Shown: in pieces, positions 57,370-63,865 of the stretch | Position numbering within the stretch: position 1 is the first letter of the stretch | Layout of the letters: each line of letters starts with the position of its first letter | From: Escherichia phage PECP14 | Sequence record: OQ870555.1 | DNA length: 64,000 nt | Strand: one strand, 5' to 3' | Notes under the pieces: generated by a model | The model's database searches: none | What the model was told of the DNA's origin: nothing | Seen by the model: the letters and a program-made list of their open reading frames with translations, nothing else | Made by a program: the position numbers and the translations under genes

Positions 57370-57603
57370 TTATGATTCTTTGAGCAAAGAAGCAAGTTCA
57401 GCATAGACTTTATCTAACTCAAAGCCAATGCGAAGAGACACACGAGTCTTCCGTTGTTTAAGTAACCATATGGAGACATTAGGGATGCCAGCGAGACGAG
57501 GTGGTACAACCCTACATAGTTTCTCCGCAGTATCGTAAACAGAAGTTTTACGTTCTTTTATGGGAAACTTCCTTGTTTCCCACTTTTTATTCTTCACTGT
57601 CAT
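57370..57603 (-). CDS. hypothetical basic protein (about 77 aa)
   Basis: ORF with GGGAG upstream of an internal ATG; the listed longer form overlaps the upstream gene. Confidence 0.4.
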   Translation of the reverse strand: MTVKNKKWETRKFPIKERKTSVYDTAEKLCRVVPPRLAGIPNVSIWLLKQRKTRVSLRIGFELDKVYAELASLLKES

Positions 57604-60376
57604 TTCTAGCTCCCAATTCAGCAAGAGCTTCCTCATGCATCTGACGTTCTTCATCTGTCATAAACTTAACTGGAATCGGCATACATTCGATCTTACAGTA
57701 AGTTCTGTACCAGTCCACAATCTTTTCCGTATCCAGATCTTTACCGATACCCATCATGCCAAGATACATACGAGCATATTTTGGGTTAGCGCTCTGACCT
57801 GTCTTAAGGAAGAAATCCTTCTTCTTATTCTTAAGAGCTTCGATAAACGGTTTGATTGTTACGTTTGAACACTTTTTAATATCTTCCCAGAACATCTCGT
57901 GCATCTTATGGAAAAATGCAGCTCGATCATTCGGTTTATCCTTGATATACTGTTCAACGTGTTCCACTGTTACATCTTTAATAGAATCCAGATGATAATA
58001 GCGAACCAGAAGTAACTTGGCTTCATAGGCATCTGCATGACGTGGTGCGCAATATTCAGGAGTTGAGTGCAGAATAGCTTTGATTCGCTCTTCTGTATAC
58101 TCTTTGCCTGCACCTTCGATAGTCCCCCAGCTTTCACTGAAGATATCAATAGTTGCACCTTGATCGAGAAGATAATAACGCAAAGTACTGGTATAGTTTC
58201 TAGATTCCAGCTCACGACGGCGTGCGTACAGTTGCTGAGCTAACTCAATCCAACCCTCGTCAATATTATATTGCTCGGAACCCGCAGAGAATCCACTCGT
58301 AGATTTATCAATAAAATAATAAATGTTCTGAGCACCACGGTCGCGCCTGATTGCTTGAAAACGCATGTTTGGCGCTTGGTTTGAGGTTCTAGTGATTACG
58401 AATACGTTATCAAAATAGTTAAAGTCAACACCACTCGTTACAGATGGACTACATAATAAACAATCAATCTGTTGATCAATTAGCTCATTAGTTGTATAAT
58501 CCAGAATACGTCGGATATCTACATCAGACGTAGAGTTTGAGTGAATTTCTTTAACTAACGCACCAGTATTACGACGTAATGCCATTCCCTTCTCATTCAG
58601 TTCATCCGGGCCACAGTCAGATACTAGGATTGATTTCTCCCCCATCTCTAAAGATGTTTGAAGTGCAACCCAAATACTGGATTCATCAGGGAATTCATAA
58701 GCATGAGCTTTCGCCAGCATTTTACGGTGGTGATTATAAAATGCGACTGGTTTATCAAAATCAATCAAAGAACCATAGGCTTCAATCGTTTCTGCACTGA
58801 TATCACCATCGGATAAGATAACAGTTTTAGCAGTAATAAGGATATCACGAAGAACCTGAATACATTCACGACGGTTTTTAACAACCGGAGCGAATAACAG
58901 ATCATTCATTACTGCGTCACATTCATCAATAAAGATCGTATCAATCTGACCCACAAAGCTCTTGAACTTATGGATAGAGTGAATAGTTGAAGACATACGA
59001 TCAATGGCACCACGTTTGAAGTTCAGCATATCAACTGACTTATCATACTGACCAGCACCGAATTTCTTCGCGTTAGAAGATACAAGTGCCCTAGTATTTG
59101 TGATTGCAATAAAGTTTCCTGGAAGAACACCTGCATCTAGCCACTTAGTTACTGCTGTAGTTTTACCCGTACCAAGACTTGCCTTAACAAATGTTAAATG
59201 TCCTTTTGGGGGTACAATGTTAATTTTCAGGTACGGAACTTCTGGTGGAGAATCTGTGTCTAGACGTTTTAATGGTACACCTTTTAAGTTTGGTGGAATC
59301 TCACGTTTGGAGTTATTTACAAAGGCTTTGAGAGCCTGCTTACGACCGTTATTAAAGTAATCTTGAATATTACGACTATTATCTTTAGTCGCAATATACT
59401 CAGATAAAGCTGGTTTAATCTCACGTTCTAACCACGTAAAGTCAACACCATCTTCTAACGCTCTGTGATAAAGTTTTGGGATAATACGCAGGTACACTCC
59501 ATCCTCAGCTTCTTCTAGTTCGCTGATGGTTTCTTCCACTTTATCAGATGCAGCCTTCTTGCCTTTAATTTGATCAAGTAAGGAGTAGAACTCTTCTTTA
59601 AACTCACCTCTAGTTGTTTCAAAGTCAACTAGGTTATTAGGTAGATTCACCTTCGAACCCTTAACATATACAAGACGTGGTTTATTCTCCGCTTTAAACG
59701 GATCGACTATACCATCATCAAATAAGGGATCTGCAAAATAGTGAAGCTGAACAGAAGAATAATAAGCTAAGTCAGCAATATCAAAGCCATACTTTTGCTT
59801 ACTACTGTCATTGATAGATGTAAATAAGAACTTTAACTGTCCCTGCGTTACCTTGACATTAGATTCTAGCATTAAGTGCATTCGGATACCTGGTTTTAAT
59901 CCAGCCGAAGACGATGCATGGGCAATAAACCCTGCATCAAGAGGAAACATATCCTCACTAATACTATTCAACATCTTAATAATATGACGTGCCATGCCAA
60001 CAAGATTAAACTTGTCATAGCCACCAGTATCTACAATACCATCCACGTCCATAGCAATAATATGACTAGGATTGGATACGTTAAAGTTTCCCCTGGTACG
60101 ACGCACATTATCTTTTGGAGCTAAACATTTACCACGAATAGCTACAATATGCGGGTCTTTGGTAAGACGACGCATGATAGGTAACATTTCAGCAAGGTTT
60201 TGCGGGTCAAGTTCTTCAAGTACATCAAATTTGAAGGGCATGGAAGCTGGTTTACCTTCTGGATGCTCTTTAGAGAATCGCTTTGCAAAGGTGTAATCTT
60301 CCACTTTGATCTCTTTCCAGATGCCAGTGGCTTTATCTCTGGAAAATCCTGCGTGACCTTGTAGGATTGAGAACAC
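57587..60376 (-). CDS. putative replication-origin-binding / SF2 helicase-like protein (about 930 aa; start uncertain)
   Basis: Walker A ASLGTGKTTAV and DExD-like IFIDECDAV; GTG at 60376 is preceded by AGGAG, while the listed ATG at 60499 adds a Cys-rich, non-protein-like 41-aa extension. Confidence 0.65.
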   Translation of the reverse strand: MFSILQGHAGFSRDKATGIWKEIKVEDYTFAKRFSKEHPEGKPASMPFKFDVLEELDPQNLAEMLPIMRRLTKDPHIVAIRGKCLAPKDNVRRTRGNFNVSNPSHIIAMDVDGIVDTGGYDKFNLVGMARHIIKMLNSISEDMFPLDAGFIAHASSSAGLKPGIRMHLMLESNVKVTQGQLKFLFTSINDSSKQKYGFDIADLAYYSSVQLHYFADPLFDDGIVDPFKAENKPRLVYVKGSKVNLPNNLVDFETTRGEFKEEFYSLLDQIKGKKAASDKVEETISELEEAEDGVYLRIIPKLYHRALEDGVDFTWLEREIKPALSEYIATKDNSRNIQDYFNNGRKQALKAFVNNSKREIPPNLKGVPLKRLDTDSPPEVPYLKINIVPPKGHLTFVKASLGTGKTTAVTKWLDAGVLPGNFIAITNTRALVSSNAKKFGAGQYDKSVDMLNFKRGAIDRMSSTIHSIHKFKSFVGQIDTIFIDECDAVMNDLLFAPVVKNRRECIQVLRDILITAKTVILSDGDISAETIEAYGSLIDFDKPVAFYNHHRKMLAKAHAYEFPDESSIWVALQTSLEMGEKSILVSDCGPDELNEKGMALRRNTGALVKEIHSNSTSDVDIRRILDYTTNELIDQQIDCLLCSPSVTSGVDFNYFDNVFVITRTSNQAPNMRFQAIRRDRGAQNIYYFIDKSTSGFSAGSEQYNIDEGWIELAQQLYARRRELESRNYTSTLRYYLLDQGATIDIFSESWGTIEGAGKEYTEERIKAILHSTPEYCAPRHADAYEAKLLLVRYYHLDSIKDVTVEHVEQYIKDKPNDRAAFFHKMHEMFWEDIKKCSNVTIKPFIEALKNKKKDFFLKTGQSANPKYARMYLGMMGIGKDLDTEKIVDWYRTYCKIECMPIPVKFMTDEERQMHEEALAELGARNDSEE

Positions 60377-60872
60377 AACAATACTCCTATGTTGGTTATT
60401 CGGATATCTTTCTTTAGGACTATTCAAAAGAATAGAACAACTATTACTACCATTTACACAAACATTAATCATCATCAAGCAGTATGAATAAGTTATCATA
60501 CCTCAGTGCTGCGCTCTCTTAACTCTTATCCAGATCAGAACCTAGGTCATTGGCCGCTAAGCCGATTCTGATTGCCCTCACTATCCTATTGGTAGGTGGC
60601 TACTGGACGTGTCACCATTCGCTGCTCTTTTCGTTCGCACCCCCATATAAAGCTCTGCCTATATAACGAGCTAAATATGCACGGTTTGGATTTACCTTTC
60701 CGAATTCAGGGTACGCAGATCACTTAATTGATAATTAACTAATGCAGTATAAACACTAGTAATAGTTAAAACAACCCTTAATGGGGCAGCCTAACTGTTC
60801 CGTATTGCGGATTGTAAACAAGAAAAATTAGCAAAATCAATTTTTACTAATGTCTCTCAATTCAATATAAAT

Positions 60873-60948: not shown

Positions 60949-60969
60949 ACCGAGTCAAAACGACTCGGT
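60949..60969 (-). terminator. Terminator ACCGAGTC-GTTTT-GACTCGGT followed by TTTCTCTG on the minus strand
   Basis: Perfect 8-bp stem plus T-rich tail downstream of gene 60993-61388. Confidence 0.6.
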
Positions 60970-60992: not shown

Positions 60993-61388
60993 TCAATCAT
61001 CATTTAGGCCTGGGACATAGATTCCAATGCGATTTAATCGACCTTTAGCTTCTTCGAGAATATCTTCGGTGTACTCCCAAATATCATCTTCTACTTGCAA
61101 AAGATAAGGGGATTCACCAGTTTCGGGGTCACGTGTAATGGCTAAACCACGTGGATGGAATATAGAGAAGTTGAGGGCAACAATCAAGCCCATGCTGGAC
61201 AATTCATTCCAGTCAGCTTCCCAACCATCATCTTCATCTTCGTCCACAAAGACACCTACACTAGGGTCTGTTACAGAAGTAAACGGAAATGTTACACTAA
61301 CCTTGTCAACCCCCAACCAACGTGCAAGGAGCCCCTCAGCACGCTCTACCAAACTAGGATCTATCTGACGCCAAAATACTTGTTCCAT
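60993..61388 (-). CDS. hypothetical protein (131 aa), paralogue of 61398-61826
   Basis: Shares the pattern W..EL..MGL..ALN...F.P...TGE.P...QV...PGL with its neighbour. Confidence 0.5.
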   Translation of the reverse strand: MEQVFWRQIDPSLVERAEGLLARWLGVDKVSVTFPFTSVTDPSVGVFVDEDEDDGWEADWNELSSMGLIVALNFSIFHPRGLAITRDPETGESPYLLQVEDDIWEYTEDILEEAKGRLNRIGIYVPGLNDD

Positions 61389-61397
61389 TCTGCCTCC

Positions 61398-61826
61398 TTA
61401 AGCAGTTAAACCTGGGATCATATACCCGAAACGACGAAGTTTCTGAATCCCCTCATTTACTTCTTCGGGCGAGTATGACCAGCCCTCACGTTCATTTACC
61501 TGGAAAGCAGGAGCTTCACCAGTGCGATAATTTACAATAAGACGGTGATTTGCAGGCATAAACAGCTTATGGTTCAAGGCAAAAACCAGACCCATTTCAT
61601 CAAGTTCTTTCCAGTCTACAATCTCTTCTACTCCCTCGCCTAAATCCACACTAACTCCAATACACGGAGCTTCCTCTAGCGGGCCTTTAAAGGATAAGAA
61701 GATATCGTTATTCTCACACCAAATCTTGAGCAGATTGATGGTTTCATTATACATACCATTAGGGAGAGAGCGCCAGAAGTTGAGAAGCATAGGATTTACC
61801 TCTTTCATGAAAATATTATTGAACAT
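61398..61826 (-). CDS. hypothetical protein (142 aa), paralogue of 60993-61388
   Basis: See 60993-61388; tandem duplication. Confidence 0.5.
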   Translation of the reverse strand: MFNNIFMKEVNPMLLNFWRSLPNGMYNETINLLKIWCENNDIFLSFKGPLEEAPCIGVSVDLGEGVEEIVDWKELDEMGLVFALNHKLFMPANHRLIVNYRTGEAPAFQVNEREGWSYSPEEVNEGIQKLRRFGYMIPGLTA

Positions 61827-61828
61827 GC

Positions 61829-62368
61829 TTATACCTTAAGTTTCTGAAGAGCCTTACACATTTCAAGATCTGGACTAAATTCCAGCATATAGCTGATAGC
61901 ATTTAAATCTTGAAGGTTTATTCCAGTCCTGCCATTTACAATAACAGTAGGAAATTGGTACATCATAGCACCAGCATCATCTAGGACGCACCAATGCTTG
62001 AGCTTATGTTTTTCTACGAAACGTAAGACAGAATTACCCCGAGATAAACCACCTCCAGTAAAATCTGTTGTACCAAGAAAACGATCGATCAAACCGAGTC
62101 CGGTCATAATCTGAACGTTCTCCATTTCATTTCGTACAGAAAACCATGAAGATACCCCAACAATCATTATTGGGGATGGCTTAAGAAAGTTCTGAAAAGC
62201 CTGGAGTAATGGCTTGTAAACCCAATCACCACCAAAGAATAGCTTCTCACTATCTGGAGCATGATGGTGAGAGATGCTCGAATTGAGCACCCCATCAATA
62301 TCCAGGAAAATCACAGGAGTATTACTTATTTCCACCAGTAGCATCCCACGTCCAGACTTTAACTTCAT
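61829..62368 (-). CDS. HAD-superfamily phosphatase-like protein (179 aa)
   Basis: HAD motif I FLDIDGVL and a C-terminal VLDD motif; second HAD-type enzyme in the window besides dmp. Confidence 0.55.
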   Translation of the reverse strand: MKLKSGRGMLLVEISNTPVIFLDIDGVLNSSISHHHAPDSEKLFFGGDWVYKPLLQAFQNFLKPSPIMIVGVSSWFSVRNEMENVQIMTGLGLIDRFLGTTDFTGGGLSRGNSVLRFVEKHKLKHWCVLDDAGAMMYQFPTVIVNGRTGINLQDLNAISYMLEFSPDLEMCKALQKLKV

Positions 62369-62507
62369 CAGTAAAAGGAACTGGAACCTTCAATTCACCT
62401 TTACCCCACATAACAGATAGGAACAGAGAATAAATGGTAATCATACCGATTAGGTTGACAAACCATACTAGACCTTTCCAGATACCCTTAAAAATCTTCT
62501 TCACCAT
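62322..62507 (-). CDS. small membrane protein (about 61 aa)
   Basis: Hydrophobic helix GLVWFVNLIGMITIYSLFLSV; AGGAGGGAG ribosome-binding site before the internal ATG. Confidence 0.4.
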   Translation of the reverse strand: MVKKIFKGIWKGLVWFVNLIGMITIYSLFLSVMWGKGELKVPVPFTDEVKVWTWDATGGNK

Positions 62508-62670
62508 ATTCTCCCTCCTTAATAAGGAACTCTTTCCATTCTGCTGTATCCTCATAGATAACGCAGAAATCATCACTCTTCCATGAGAAGTCATCAGTAG
62601 CAAATTCGAAACGGTAGCACCAACTACCGTCTGGCCATACTAAAAGATCACACATGCTTTTCTGGGACAT
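62488..62670 (-). CDS. hypothetical small acidic protein (about 60 aa)
   Basis: GGAGGGA upstream of the internal ATG; the longer listed form overlaps the Sir2-like gene. Confidence 0.35.
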   Translation of the reverse strand: MSQKSMCDLLVWPDGSWCYRFEFATDDFSWKSDDFCVIYEDTAEWKEFLIKEGEYGEEDF

Positions 62671-63499
62671 AAATATTTCCCTCCATAAAAGCTTCAACTT
62701 GATCAATAAAGTGTTTATTACCAAAAACTTCGGCAGCTCCAGCACGCCATACAGTAACACCACGTTTCTCATACTCAAGCTGTTCGTCATAACGAACTTG
62801 TGGGTTAACAACCATCATCTTAGTTCCACGACATACAGCAGGAAATAGCTCCCAGTTGAAGTCGATTACTTGGTTGCTACAACCTACTACAATAACCATA
62901 TCATTGCTAGTAAGTGTATCAAACAGGTTAATCTGACCCATATACCACGGAGCCGTCTCACCAAAGAATGTTACGTTTGGTTTTACCCATTCGTAATCCT
63001 CAGGGGCAATCGCAGTATACCCAACATCTTCGATGATTTGGTTGCGACCCTGACGATAGATCACCTCTTTCAAGTACCCGTGAGCGTGAATGATTTCATC
63101 ACGAGGGATACCAGCACGTTCCAGAAGGTCATCAACGTTAGTAGTGAAGTTCTTCACGCTATCCTCACCATAACGCTGGAACCATTCTGCAATTCGCAGA
63201 TGGGCAATGTTAGGCTCAACAGTCTGTAATTCCTGACGACGCATGTTGTAGAACTCATGAGTCTTGAGATACAGATCGTTACCATCTTTATCAATGCCAG
63301 GGAAACGAGCACTGAAGTAGTTAGGATCATCTTCACCACAGAAGCGACGGAAGCCAGCTTCAAAGTTAGGCAAGCTACATACTTCCTCTAGATCGTACTC
63401 ATCCCACAAGGATTTCCCACTAGCAGTATCAGTACGGAAAGCACGAACACCACTATCTACACTCAAACCTGCACCACTAACAACGATTAGTCTACGCAT
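62648..63499 (-). CDS. Sir2-family (sirtuin-like) NAD-dependent protein, no zinc-ribbon module (283 aa)
   Basis: Sirtuin signature motifs in order: GAGLSVDSGVRAFR, TTNVDDLLERAG, HAHG, PNVTFFGE, VVVGCSNQV; no CxxC zinc-binding pairs. Confidence 0.7.
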   Translation of the reverse strand: MRRLIVVSGAGLSVDSGVRAFRTDTASGKSLWDEYDLEEVCSLPNFEAGFRRFCGEDDPNYFSARFPGIDKDGNDLYLKTHEFYNMRRQELQTVEPNIAHLRIAEWFQRYGEDSVKNFTTNVDDLLERAGIPRDEIIHAHGYLKEVIYRQGRNQIIEDVGYTAIAPEDYEWVKPNVTFFGETAPWYMGQINLFDTLTSNDMVIVVGCSNQVIDFNWELFPAVCRGTKMMVVNPQVRYDEQLEYEKRGVTVWRAGAAEVFGNKHFIDQVEAFMEGNIYVPEKHV

Positions 63500-63693
63500 T
63501 ATACGATTCCTTGCTTGAATCCTTCGATGATATTTTGGAGCAGAATTGCTTCTTCTGGGCGAACCTTCTCTTGCTTAATAAGCATATCCAAACCAGCAAT
63601 ACAGGTAGCTACTCCAGCATTATACCCAGCATTCCACTGCTCCATGAGCATATTTTCTAAATTACTTTTTAGATTCTGATTCAAGAAGTCCAT
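63499..63693 (-). CDS. hypothetical small protein (about 64 aa)
   Basis: GGAGGAAAAA upstream of the internal ATG; immediately upstream of the Sir2-like gene. Confidence 0.4.
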   Translation of the reverse strand: MDFLNQNLKSNLENMLMEQWNAGYNAGVATCIAGLDMLIKQEKVRPEEAILLQNIIEGFKQGIV

Positions 63694-63865
63694 AAAGTTT
63701 TTCCTCCAATTCCATAATACGATTTTCGTAAGAAGCACGCAGCTTCTCGATGGACAAAGCACGAACTGTAACTTCATCTGAATTGATCGCTAGCTGAGCT
63801 AGATCTTCTGTTTCCATACGTCCGTTGTAAATTAAGCGATATTTAAGATGTTTTACGTTTTTCAT
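63662..63865 (-). CDS. hypothetical protein (67 aa)
   Basis: ORF with coiled-coil-like C-terminus; part of the overlapping small-gene chain. Confidence 0.4.
   Translation of the reverse strand: MKNVKHLKYRLIYNGRMETEDLAQLAINSDEVTVRALSIEKLRASYENRIMELEEKLYGLLESESKK

Follow-up and report, generated by a model that had tools for sequence, protein, structure and literature searches.

A zinc-less sirtuin and a capless HAD phosphatase in an early operon of T5-like phages: a possible cut-down module for NAD+-dependent clean-up of nucleic-acid ends

The genes for a Sir2-like protein and a HAD phosphatase that share an early operon in Escherichia phage PECP14 might constitute a T5-type, cut-down phage module for the NAD+-dependent clean-up of phosphate-bearing nucleic-acid ends, a reading that we advance tentatively and to which we assign a probability of roughly 0.35. 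The window, i.e., the whole 64,000-nucleotide stretch of record OQ870555.1 that was analyzed, belongs to a T5-like phage and shares ~99% identity with Salmonella phage Stitch and Escherichia phage DaisyDussoix. The pairing of the two genes is real but already known: the Sir2 gene of T5-like phages has been annotated since 2005 (T5.102), and its neighborhood with a "Swiss-army-knife" HAD was described in 2022 together with a prediction of NAD-dependent KptA/Tpt1-like RNA repair (PMC9503650). The present analysis adds a link between HAD_SAK_2 and NARP1-type operons, the capless fold of the HAD, the clade-wide loss of zinc and the replacement of Sir2 alleles. Our literature search found no experimental work or enzyme assay on any phage member of the Sir2 clade or of HAD_SAK_2.

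The Sir2 gene corresponds to T5.102 and the HAD gene to T5.105, both within an eight-gene early operon that runs from 63865 to 60993 on the minus strand, between nrdD and the primase and among nucleotide-metabolism genes. The "chain of overlapping small genes" noted in a preliminary description of this DNA is real, comprising eight co-directional ORFs with overlaps of 1–32 nt or gaps of at most 9 nt. The 5′ end of the operon lies outside the window; in T5 the promoter comes after nrdD. In the order of transcription the features are:

63662..63865, minus strand: small ORF of 67 aa (PHROG 5236), upstream operon member
63499..63693, minus strand: small ORF, 64 aa as annotated in relatives (PHROG 5827), its stop overlapping the Sir2 start by 1 nt
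62648..63499, minus strand: Sir2-like protein of 283 aa, a class III (CobB/SIRT5-like) sirtuin in the T5.102 orthologue slot
62488..62670, minus strand: small ORF of 60 aa (PHROG 5116) with a GGAGGG ribosome-binding site and a 23-nt overlap with the 3′ end of the Sir2 gene
62322..62507, minus strand: small hydrophobic ORF of 61 aa (PHROG 11166) with the ribosome-binding site AAGGAGGG
61829..62368, minus strand: HAD_SAK_2 phosphatase, capless (C0), T5.105 orthologue
61398..61826, minus strand: DUF7415 protein a, 142 aa, T5.106 orthologue
60993..61388, minus strand: DUF7415 protein b, 131 aa, T5.107 orthologue and paralogue of DUF7415 protein a
60949..60969, minus strand: intrinsic-terminator-like hairpin (9-bp stem with 5 GC pairs, T-rich tail) closing the operon

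The hairpin corresponds to the terminator annotated after T5.107. Both small ORFs between Sir2 and the HAD have strong GGAGG ribosome-binding sites; the PHROG 5116 ORF occurs in some T5-like phages only and also lies 3′ of Sir2 in two non-T5 loci (L046 and L048), and the presence of the PHROG 11166 ORF likewise varies across T5-like phages. Scans with Pfam, NCBIfam, PHROGs and PADLOC assigned no function to the two DUF7415 proteins or the four small ORFs. The HAD ORF spans 179 aa from its first ATG, and its relatives are annotated as a 168-aa form starting at 62335; the candidate start codons are GTG at 62335 and ATG at 62344 and 62368.

The profile search suggested in the preliminary description returned matches to SIR2 and HAD_SAK_2, both far beyond chance. 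The Sir2-like protein matches Pfam SIR2 (PF02146) with 77.9 bits against a cut-off of 24 (E = 1.2e-21) and PHROG 2162 with E = 1.4e-107, and by profile scan it is a single-domain protein. All five sirtuin motifs listed earlier are present and in order, namely G9-A-G-x-S13-x-x-S16-G17-x-x-x-F21-R22, T119-T-N121-V-D123-D-L125, H140-G141, F179-G180-E181 and V205-G206-C-S208, and they are invariant or nearly so among the 72 members of its clade. Within these, G9, A10, G11, S13, S16, F21, R22, N121, V122 and D123 show no variation (n = 72), with the Gln of the second motif replaced by Thr120. The catalytic His/Asn context likewise stands on alignment: both N121 and H140 are invariant in the same 72 sequences, and H140-G141 aligns with the HG of E. 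coli CobB. Beyond the clade, in an alignment of the window protein with the nearest cluster representatives, the catalytic His is found in 149 of 151 sequences and the YxxR motif in 108 of 151. The class III signature Y84-x-x-R87, which aligns to CobB "FYNARR", is invariant in the clade (n = 72), and the hydrophobic residues of the acyl-lysine tunnel (V176, F178 and F179) are conserved in it. Residues 47–76 form a variable insert that is missing from many members. Since GAGxS, F21/R22, N121/D123, H140, FGE and GxS remain invariant in 72 members of only ~58% mean column identity, the window protein is, judging by its sequence, almost certainly an active NAD+-using enzyme. An artefact or pseudogene was rejected, the ORF being intact and 99% conserved in more than 100 records with invariant catalytic residues. 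A structure model from the single sequence was too poor to use (pLDDT 40.7). The clade is present in ~970 of 50,697 deposited phage genomes, T5 among these, and at a fixed slot of T5-like genomes one Sir2 allele has repeatedly given way to another.

By sequence the protein is closest to E. coli CobB (which the clade profile matches with E = 9e-25), Sir2Af1/2, SIRT5 and Sir2Tm. The NCBIfam CobB-type deacylase models also match it, with scores below their equivalog or subfamily cut-offs (70.5 vs 320 bits for NF040867, 72.3 vs 318 for NF001755 and 87.8 vs 243 for NF001753). With E. coli CobB and human SIRT5 it shares the Rossmann NAD motifs, the N and D of the TQNID-type motif, the catalytic His, FGE, GxS, the class III "GxW" after FR and Y-x-x-R. 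It differs from them in having TTNVD for TQNID, V-I-N/D-F in place of the substrate-staple V-Y-P of CobB, the 30-residue variable insert and no zinc cysteines, and in being encoded by a phage within an early operon. Regarding the zinc ligands, the absence of the zinc-ribbon CxxC pairs observed earlier was borne out, for the protein has just four cysteines (41, 54, 207 and 223), none of them within the small-domain segment 141–173, where the CobB cysteines align to Tyr or gaps. The nearest ~25 cluster representatives likewise have no zinc cysteines, and more distant relatives have two CxxC pairs; in these alignments the loss of zinc extends through the whole Sir2 clade. The length of the small-domain segment is retained despite this loss. 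A 2016 study had pointed out zinc loss in phage Sir2 proteins, made the small-domain length argument for KVP40-type phage Sir2, named T5 as a carrier of a homologue, and proposed, in silico only, that the KVP40-like protein deacetylates acetyl-CoA synthetase (PMC5107563). The Sir2/CobB proteins of such KVP40-like vibriophages (phiSt2 and phiGrn1) are comparable to the window protein as phage-encoded CobB-like sirtuins without zinc ligands, but are only ~31–35% identical to it.

The HAD-like phosphatase reported next to Sir2 was confirmed by a match to Pfam HAD_SAK_2 (PF18143) with 69.7 bits against a cut-off of 27.5 (E = 4.4e-19) and by intact catalytic motifs. The SAK HAD domain was reportedly defined in the 2016 RNA-repair paper of Burroughs and Aravind. 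In the numbering of the 168-aa form, D12-I-D14, S62/S63, R99 and D119-D120 are invariant or nearly so across 66 sequences with 28% mean column identity. Its predicted structure displays a capless Rossmannoid HAD fold (pLDDT 96.7), and the solved folds nearest to the model are those of MDP-1, Scp1 and the 3′-phosphatase domain of T4 Pnkp, the last being a weak similarity (Foldseek rank 6, probability 0.89, TM 0.41). Searching solved structures with the HAD sequence, alone or as a profile, gave nothing significant. MDP-1, Scp1 and the T4 Pnkp domain are all HADs whose target phosphates sit on macromolecules. The absence of a cap together with these nearest folds suggests that a macromolecular substrate would fit the enzyme better. 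An IMG/VR scan with the HAD alignment, for which one peptide pattern was used, returned mostly T5-like loci.

Across T5-like phages, Sir2 and HAD_SAK_2 show three arrangements: they adjoin each other, have one or two small ORFs between them, or are reversed as HAD–small ORF–Sir2 (L065 and L105). In a distant locus (L057; Sir2 38% identical), HAD_SAK_2 lies 2.4 kb downstream. Some T5-like phages, namely L006, L007, L015 and DT57C, code for Sir2 but have lost the HAD, and HAD_SAK_2 is also found without Sir2; the coupling of the two is therefore not obligatory. In 145-kb myoviruses, members of the same Sir2 clade (45–56% identical) are embedded in the string Metallophos–Rnl1-type RNA ligase–cREC–AAA_33 kinase–Sir2–DNA ligase–MazG, which was observed in eight complete loci and in rearranged or partial variants (L008, L017, L022, L044 and L051). 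This string independently reproduces the published Sir2 neighborhood (PMC9503650). In terms of the sirtuin-centered phage RNA-repair systems of Iyer, Burroughs, Anantharaman and Aravind (2022), it recapitulates their type 2 (RNA ligase, cREC, kinase, MazG, calcineurin-like), and the window has the same locus type as their type 3, i.e., that of the Tequintavirus Escherichia phage SP15.

A further set of neighborhoods connects both genes to NAD+ reconstitution. Homologues of the HAD (35–48% identical) precede a Prs-like and NAPRTase-like pair in four myovirus loci (L066, L104, L107 and L109), either immediately or at a distance of one to two small ORFs, with a stop/start overlap in two of them. 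These pairs, 38% identical to that of Bas62, are NARP1-type by likeness and may be either Adps/Namat or Prs/NadV. Bas62, a myovirus, and the NARP1 reference phage, Bas63, belong to one collection of E. coli phages. Eight type-B loci also have a NARP1-type pair 4–6 kb from Sir2, transcribed divergently; in L056 the distance is 1.3 kb, and in L058 a NAMPT gene is situated directly 5′ of Sir2. A close relative, TrudiRoth, has a Sir2 that is 97.9% identical to the window protein and carries a proven NARP3 counter-defense operon. A 2.5-kb stretch of Aeromonas T4-like phages contains HAD_SAK_2 together with RNA ligase A and a DUF7415-like ORF, and the HAD of Aeromonas phage PX29 is flanked by td and nrdA.1. 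The neighbors of Sir2 in phi92-type phages obtained no function from the Pfam, NCBIfam, PHROGs and PADLOC scans.

The precedent for an end clean-up reaction comes from the Tpt1/KptA–Cpd1–Poa1 pathway, which removes the 2′-phosphate left after tRNA ligation: an NAD+-dependent transfer yields nicotinamide and ADP-ribose 1″-2″ cyclic phosphate, on which a cyclic phosphodiesterase and then a phosphatase act. We propose a functional analogy only, and no homology, in which the three roles would go to Sir2, cREC and HAD_SAK_2, respectively. The fold of Tpt1 is of the ADP-ribosyltransferase type and Poa1 belongs to the Macro domains, whereas the window protein is a Rossmann-fold sirtuin and does not have the Tpt1/KptA fold. 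No ligase that would make the 2′-phosphate junction was found in the T5-type operon or elsewhere in the window; ligase and end-healing genes adjoin the same clade in the 145-kb myoviruses. The two steps of Tpt1 correspond one-to-one to the two steps of sirtuins, and retention of the catalytic His thus fits a reaction on RNA ends. T4 Pnkp, which acts on nucleic-acid ends and repairs tRNA with Rnl1, likewise uses a capless HAD phosphatase; the T5-type operon differs from that system in having neither a kinase domain nor a ligase. The NARP1-AP operon (Adps–Adpp–Namat) resembles the four myovirus loci in having a small phosphatase gene inside a Prs-like/NAPRTase-like operon, but its published phosphatase is a Macro domain rather than a HAD, and no match to Adps or Namat was found inside the window. 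In a comparable NARP1 operon position, this Macro domain has been shown to work as an ADPR-1″-phosphate phosphatase (bioRxiv 10.64898/2026.01.28.702374), so that the placement of HAD_SAK_2 before the NARP1-type pair speaks for a phosphate of ADP-ribose as substrate.

The gene identities, catalytic residues, operon and neighborhoods are observed here; what each enzyme acts on, and that the two are coupled, is what we infer. Early in infection the sirtuin would bind NAD+, an oxygen nucleophile would attack C1″ with displacement of nicotinamide, and the 2″-OH, activated by His140, would attack in a second step. Its target would be a phosphate on damaged RNA (a 2′-phosphate as with Tpt1/KptA) instead of an acyl-lysine, and the reaction would leave repaired RNA together with nicotinamide and an ADP-ribose (cyclic) phosphate. 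A terminal phosphate would then be stripped by the capless HAD_SAK_2, either from the RNA end or from the ADP-ribose phosphate to give plain ADP-ribose. In the large myoviruses, the genes encoded nearby would supply the remaining pathway, comprising a 5′-kinase, the cREC and calcineurin-like end-healing enzymes, an Rnl1 ligase and the NARP1-type pair that rebuilds NAD+. The T5-like phages would have kept only Sir2 and the HAD, relying on host ligases and drawing NAD+ from a separate source, which in close relatives is NARP3. Several observations speak against this reading. The active site looks like that of an ordinary deacylase, and the nearest relatives are CobB, Sir2Af and SIRT5. There is no RNA ligase, kinase or cREC in the window (tblastn) or beside the T5-type pair, whose coupling is dispensable as noted above, and the Sir2 gene of phi92-like phages is remote from their RNA-ligase cluster. 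The myovirus neighborhood could be a general early or counter-defense island (tRNA array, NARP1 and repair genes) rather than a pathway, and the type-B loci may share one ancestral arrangement and hence be non-independent observations.

The main rival holds that Sir2 is a phage protein lysine deacylase, a CobB-like deacetylase or desuccinylase that has lost its structural zinc, with the HAD as an unrelated neighbor; we consider it only slightly less likely than the clean-up reading. Such an enzyme might, with the same modest likelihood, take acyl groups off host or phage proteins early on, for example metabolic enzymes, RNA polymerase or ligases. The best matches and CobB-type models described above, the invariance of Y84-x-x-R87, of His140 and of the tunnel's hydrophobic residues in the FGE region, the wide retention of YxxR and His beyond the clade, and a small domain that keeps its length without zinc, as in KVP40-type phage Sir2 (PMC5107563), are all in its favor, as is the persistence of Sir2 in T5-like phages that have no HAD. 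Against this, the scores fall far under the CobB equivalog cut-offs, the substrate-staple of CobB is altered and the recurrent neighbors (RNA ligase/cREC/kinase, HAD_SAK_2 and NAD+ reconstitution genes) are left unexplained; further, E. coli and Salmonella own CobB, making the gain from a second copy not obvious. Another alternative, which we regard as improbable, is a counter-defense module acting on NAD+ or ADP-ribose, with the HAD as a non-Macro analogue of Adpp and Sir2 converting or destroying an ADPR-derived molecule or modifying a defense protein. The HAD substrate would then, equally improbably, be the ADPR-1″-phosphate that RES-type NAD+ phosphorylases make, or else NADP+ or a similar phosphorylated form of NAD or ADPR. 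The HAD_SAK_2 genes heading NARP1-type operons in four loci, two with stop/start overlaps, argue for such a function, with the phosphatase that extends NARP1 against aRES as precedent, as do the occurrence, in several lineages, of Sir2 next to genes for NAD+ salvage or reconstitution, the NARP3 operon of TrudiRoth and the repeated allele replacement at a fixed slot, which is typical of arms-race genes. Yet in T5-like phages no Adps or Namat lies near the HAD, so that the ADPR made would not rebuild NAD+; the capless fold better suits macromolecules, CobB-like sirtuins have no known activity on immune signals and no PADLOC or anti-defense family was matched.

It appears very improbable that Sir2 serves in host shut-off or superinfection exclusion as a toxin with NADase or ADP-ribosyltransferase activity and that the HAD is a nucleotide 5′-phosphatase of the nearby nucleotide metabolism. 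Sirtuin domains are able to act as NADases or ADP-ribosyltransferases (literature summarized in PMC9503650). The location of the operon between nrdD and the primase, and of the PX29 HAD between td and nrdA.1, would also suit this proposal. However, the protein resembles CobB-type deacylases rather than defense NADases, has no SLOG, HerA or Macro partner and keeps the catalytic His; class M ADP-ribosylating sirtuins have lost that residue. A drain on NAD+ would also harm the phage because T5-like phages use an NAD+-dependent DNA ligase and close relatives encode NAD+ synthesis. The roles offered in the preliminary description (NAD/ADP-ribose metabolism, host protein modification and counter-defense) are broad, and all of them stay as candidates. 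The tie to the Sir2 NADases of anti-phage systems drawn there finds no support in the sequence, with no PADLOC family matching any of the six operon proteins scanned at E <= 0.01 and the closest relatives being CobB/SIRT5-type deacylases. We accordingly rejected a defense-type NADase (ThsA, DSR1/2, SIR2-HerA or SIR2-APAZ), there being neither a PADLOC match nor a partner domain in this CobB-like protein, as well as a SirTM-Macro toxin pair, given that a profile scan found no Macro domain in the operon and His140 is retained.

Returning to the clean-up of phosphate-bearing ends, a bolder and rather doubtful extension is that this clade represents the first sirtuins with a nucleic-acid phosphate as natural substrate, a Tpt1/KptA analogue on a deacylase scaffold, and HAD_SAK_2 a second, non-Macro class of ADP-ribose-phosphate phosphatases that recycles the by-product into ADP-ribose for rebuilding NAD+ and could further neutralize RES-type NAD+ phosphorolysis, the two jointly linking RNA repair to the NAD+ arms race. 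Carriers of the clade include T5, a model phage, and several members of an E. coli phage collection that is amenable to genetics. If either the RNA-repair or the ADP-ribose reading holds, it would define a new class of sirtuin substrate and add a phosphatase family to the NAD+-centered conflict between phages and their hosts; if Sir2 is a plain deacylase, large virulent phages would edit the acylome of their host.

The window comes from the genome of a T5-like phage (Demerecviridae), and its segment 61000-64000 matches 465 phage records, with 99.1–99.3% identity to Klebsiella phage 150049, the Salmonella phages Stitch, 3-29 and fuchur, and Escherichia phage DaisyDussoix (Bas31). It spans structural and replication regions only; T5-like phages typically carry many tRNA genes, and none were found across these 64 kb. 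The preliminary description had placed a Sir2-like protein and a HAD-like phosphatase in a chain of small genes, and the minus strand indeed carries an unbroken chain of eight genes from 63865 to 60993.

Elements of the chain, upstream to downstream
upstream end, minus strand: two small ORFs, 5′ of the Sir2 gene
62648-63499, minus strand: Sir2-like gene, 283 aa, Pfam SIR2
between Sir2 and HAD, minus strand: two small ORFs, both preceded by strong GGAGG ribosome-binding sites
61829-62335/62368, minus strand: HAD gene, Pfam HAD_SAK_2
60993-61826, minus strand: two paralogous DUF7415 genes, last in the chain
60969-60949, minus strand: terminator hairpin with a 9-bp stem, closing the chain

The T5 counterpart, T5.100-T5.107, has an annotated promoter following nrdD and an annotated terminator following T5.107; its T5.102 and T5.105 correspond to Sir2 and HAD. 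The Sir2–HAD gap (62322-62670) holds 0–3 small ORFs depending on the T5-like phage (clusters c11, c49, c69 and c85). One of these, a strongly hydrophobic 61-aa ORF (62322-62507), looks like a membrane peptide, and the family of the 60-aa ORF also occurs 3′ of Sir2 in L046 and L048, non-T5 contigs among the loci retrieved for comparison. At 57587-60499, following about 450 nt free of genes, is a 970-aa ORF for the primase or ‘replication origin binding’ protein (T5.108).

Profile searches bore out both domain assignments. The 283-aa protein matches Pfam SIR2 with 77.9 bits against a cut-off of 24 (E = 1.2e-21), and among solved structures E. coli CobB comes closest (E = 1.3e-16 from the single sequence, 9e-25 from the clade profile), ahead of Sir2Af1/2, SIRT5 and Sir2Tm; the protein scores far under the CobB equivalog cut-offs. 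Across two clade alignments (23 and 72 members), all the sirtuin motifs listed earlier, together with the class III signature Y84-x-x-R87 and P96-N97-x-x-H100, are invariant or nearly so. The reported lack of zinc-ribbon CxxC pairs is equally real: none of the four cysteines falls in the small-domain segment 141-173, where those of CobB align opposite Tyr or gaps. Only 18 cluster representatives out of 1.84 billion searched reach E ≤ 1e-30. Zinc loss is thus a genuine clade trait, with a small domain that persists metal-free, since among the 150 nearest representatives the closest ~25 lack the zinc-segment cysteines while more distant ones, whose segment is about as long, have two CxxC pairs there.

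The 179-aa HAD protein matches HAD_SAK_2, described in Pfam as ‘HAD domain in Swiss Army Knife RNA repair proteins’, with 69.7 bits against a cut-off of 27.5 (E = 4.4e-19), and an alignment of 66 sequences (28% mean column identity) shows conservation of all four HAD catalytic motifs. The AlphaFold model from that alignment is confident (pLDDT 96.7, pTM 0.92) and displays a minimal Rossmannoid core with only a β-hairpin flap; hence, the enzyme is predicted to be capless.

The feature is already known and has a published functional prediction. In T5 and hundreds of relatives, the Sir2 gene carries the annotation Sir2 or NAD-dependent deacetylase; a 2016 vibriophage paper (PMC5107563) described phage Sir2/CobB proteins without the zinc ligand and listed T5 as a carrier; and the sirtuin has been proposed to act like KptA in removing RNA 2′-phosphates (PMC9503650). 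As Escherichia phage SP15, which stands for type 3 in the latter paper, is a Tequintavirus, that description covers the window's own locus type. We found no experimental work on any clade member in the literature. Several records are misannotated: T5.105 (NC_005859 57588-58094), a HAD, and many of its relatives carry the RefSeq label ‘Sir2 (NAD-dependent deacetylase)’, a mistaken name that PHROG 18062 takes over, and the Sir2 of Klebsiella phage vB_Kpn_3 and the same region of ZBSTP12 are named ‘tail assembly protein’ and ‘tail tube protein’, respectively. Five ‘Campylobacter phage’ records (MG065692, MG065642, MG065650, MG065661 and MG065674) contain T5-like or rV5-like Sir2 and HAD genes that hardly differ in type from their enterobacterial phage counterparts; probably, the host labels are wrong or the samples were mixed.

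We compared 60 loci with Sir2 relatives from viral contigs, clustering the neighbors and scanning representatives against Pfam. The common T5-like order is nrdD ... Sir2–(0–3 small ORFs)–HAD–DUF7415 x2–primase, with HAD directly after Sir2 in L035, L038, L039 and L041, and absent from L006, L007 and L015. More distant T5-like contigs (L065, L105) show the reverse, HAD–small ORF–Sir2, and an 86-kb contig (L057) with a Sir2 only 38% identical has HAD_SAK_2 2.4 kb downstream. Members of the same Sir2 clade (45–56% identical) also occur in 145-kb myoviruses. Eight complete loci there, along with incomplete or rearranged versions, have the gene order calcineurin-like phosphoesterase–Rnl1-type RNA ligase–cREC–AAA_33 kinase–Sir2–ATP-dependent DNA ligase–MazG-like, reproducing the published type 2 neighborhood (PMC9503650). 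In the phi92-like exception, the Sir2 neighbors are uncharacterized and the RNA-ligase cluster lies elsewhere in the genome.

Within T5-like phages, the Sir2 gene itself is a mosaic hot spot. In a comparison of 62648-63499 with L021-L041 and T5 (L032), the window and T5 Sir2s are only 51–52% identical, against 90–96% for the flanks (HAD 90–92%, primase 94%, upstream ORF 91%), and in a rough neighbor-joining tree the T5-like Sir2s split into four or more lineages, between which those of large myoviruses fall. This implies repeated replacement of Sir2 at a fixed slot, which is compatible with selection by host defenses.

Gene neighborhoods also link both genes to NAD+ reconstitution. A divergently transcribed Prs-like and NAPRTase-like pair lies 4–6 kb from Sir2 in the 145-kb myoviruses (1.3 kb in L056), and in L058 a NAMPT gene is directly 5′ of Sir2. 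A pair of this type in phage Bas63, NARP1, was shown to use ADP-ribose and nicotinamide to rebuild NAD+ (bioRxiv 10.1101/2024.02.11.579819). Homologs of the window HAD (35–48% identical) occur just before such a pair, or 1–2 small ORFs before it, in four loci.

HAD_SAK_2 genes preceding NARP1-type pairs
L066/L067, Serratia phage ChuuTotoro, 38595-39104: stop/start overlap
L107, Acinetobacter phage ABPH49: stop/start overlap
L104: metagenomic contig
L109: metagenomic contig

The pairs are 38% identical to that of Bas62, a myovirus that shares its E. coli phage collection with Bas63, and could be either Adps/Namat or Prs/NadV. Some NARP1 operons include a Macro-domain phosphatase that converts ADPR-1″-phosphate to ADP-ribose and thereby defeats RES-type defense (2026 preprint, bioRxiv 10.64898/2026.01.28.702374). 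By analogy, the position of HAD_SAK_2 before NARP1-type pairs suggests that it could be a phosphatase for an ADP-ribose phosphate, a HAD-type alternative to the Macro enzyme. The HAD is not mentioned in that preprint, nor is its association with NARP1 in the accessible text of the NARP1 and NARP1-AP papers. In Aeromonas T4-like phages, RNA ligase A is two genes away from HAD, and a DUF7415-like ORF (L064 7260-7532, L097, L098, L100) lies directly 3′ of the ligase, 1.8 kb from HAD_SAK_2; thus, the HAD–DUF7415 association recurs outside T5-like phages. Separately, 145-kb myoviruses (loci L016, L019, L020, L042, L045, L052, L053, L055, L056, L110) have an RNA-repair cluster (phosphoesterase, RNA ligase, kinase) divergent from the NARP1-type pair and side by side with it and a tRNA array, which together look like one counter-defense island. 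The NARP3 NAD+ salvage operon (NadR-like and PnuC-like) was demonstrated in Escherichia phage TrudiRoth (Bas30, MZ501109), whose Sir2 shares 97.9% identity with that of the window; hence, this allele occurs together with an NAD+ supply of phage origin. The window itself contains no NARP3.

The interpretation in the preliminary description is only partly supported, and the functions it names stand as predictions. We tentatively favor NAD+-dependent phosphate removal (probability about 0.35), as it best ties together the links of Sir2 to HAD and to RNA ligase, cREC and kinase, and those of HAD to NARP1-type pairs and to Rnl1 and DUF7415. The sirtuin would take the Tpt1/KptA role, cREC, where present, would open cyclic phosphates, HAD would remove the remaining phosphate from RNA or ADP-ribose phosphate, and NARP-type genes would restore NAD+. 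Tpt1 works in two chemical steps that have their parallels in the sirtuin reaction, so the conserved His is compatible with such a role. However, YxxR and the hydrophobic tunnel residues are conserved, and the active site resembles the one in standard class III deacylases; a plain protein deacylase is a possibility ranking just behind. Also against phosphate removal, T5-like phages have no ligase, kinase or cREC next to the pair, some of them dispense with HAD, and the myovirus loci with the RNA-ligase string may go back to a single inherited arrangement and not to independent events.

The myovirus region is, moreover, also an early/counter-defense island with a tRNA array, again counting against phosphate removal. 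A counter-defense role on small NAD/ADPR molecules seems unlikely. Sir2 matched none of the defense-system models, and an NADase or toxin role is more improbable still. The locus retains its value as a tractable test case, in T5 or related E. coli collection phages, for the function of phage sirtuins, one which the HAD–NARP1 link found here sharpens.
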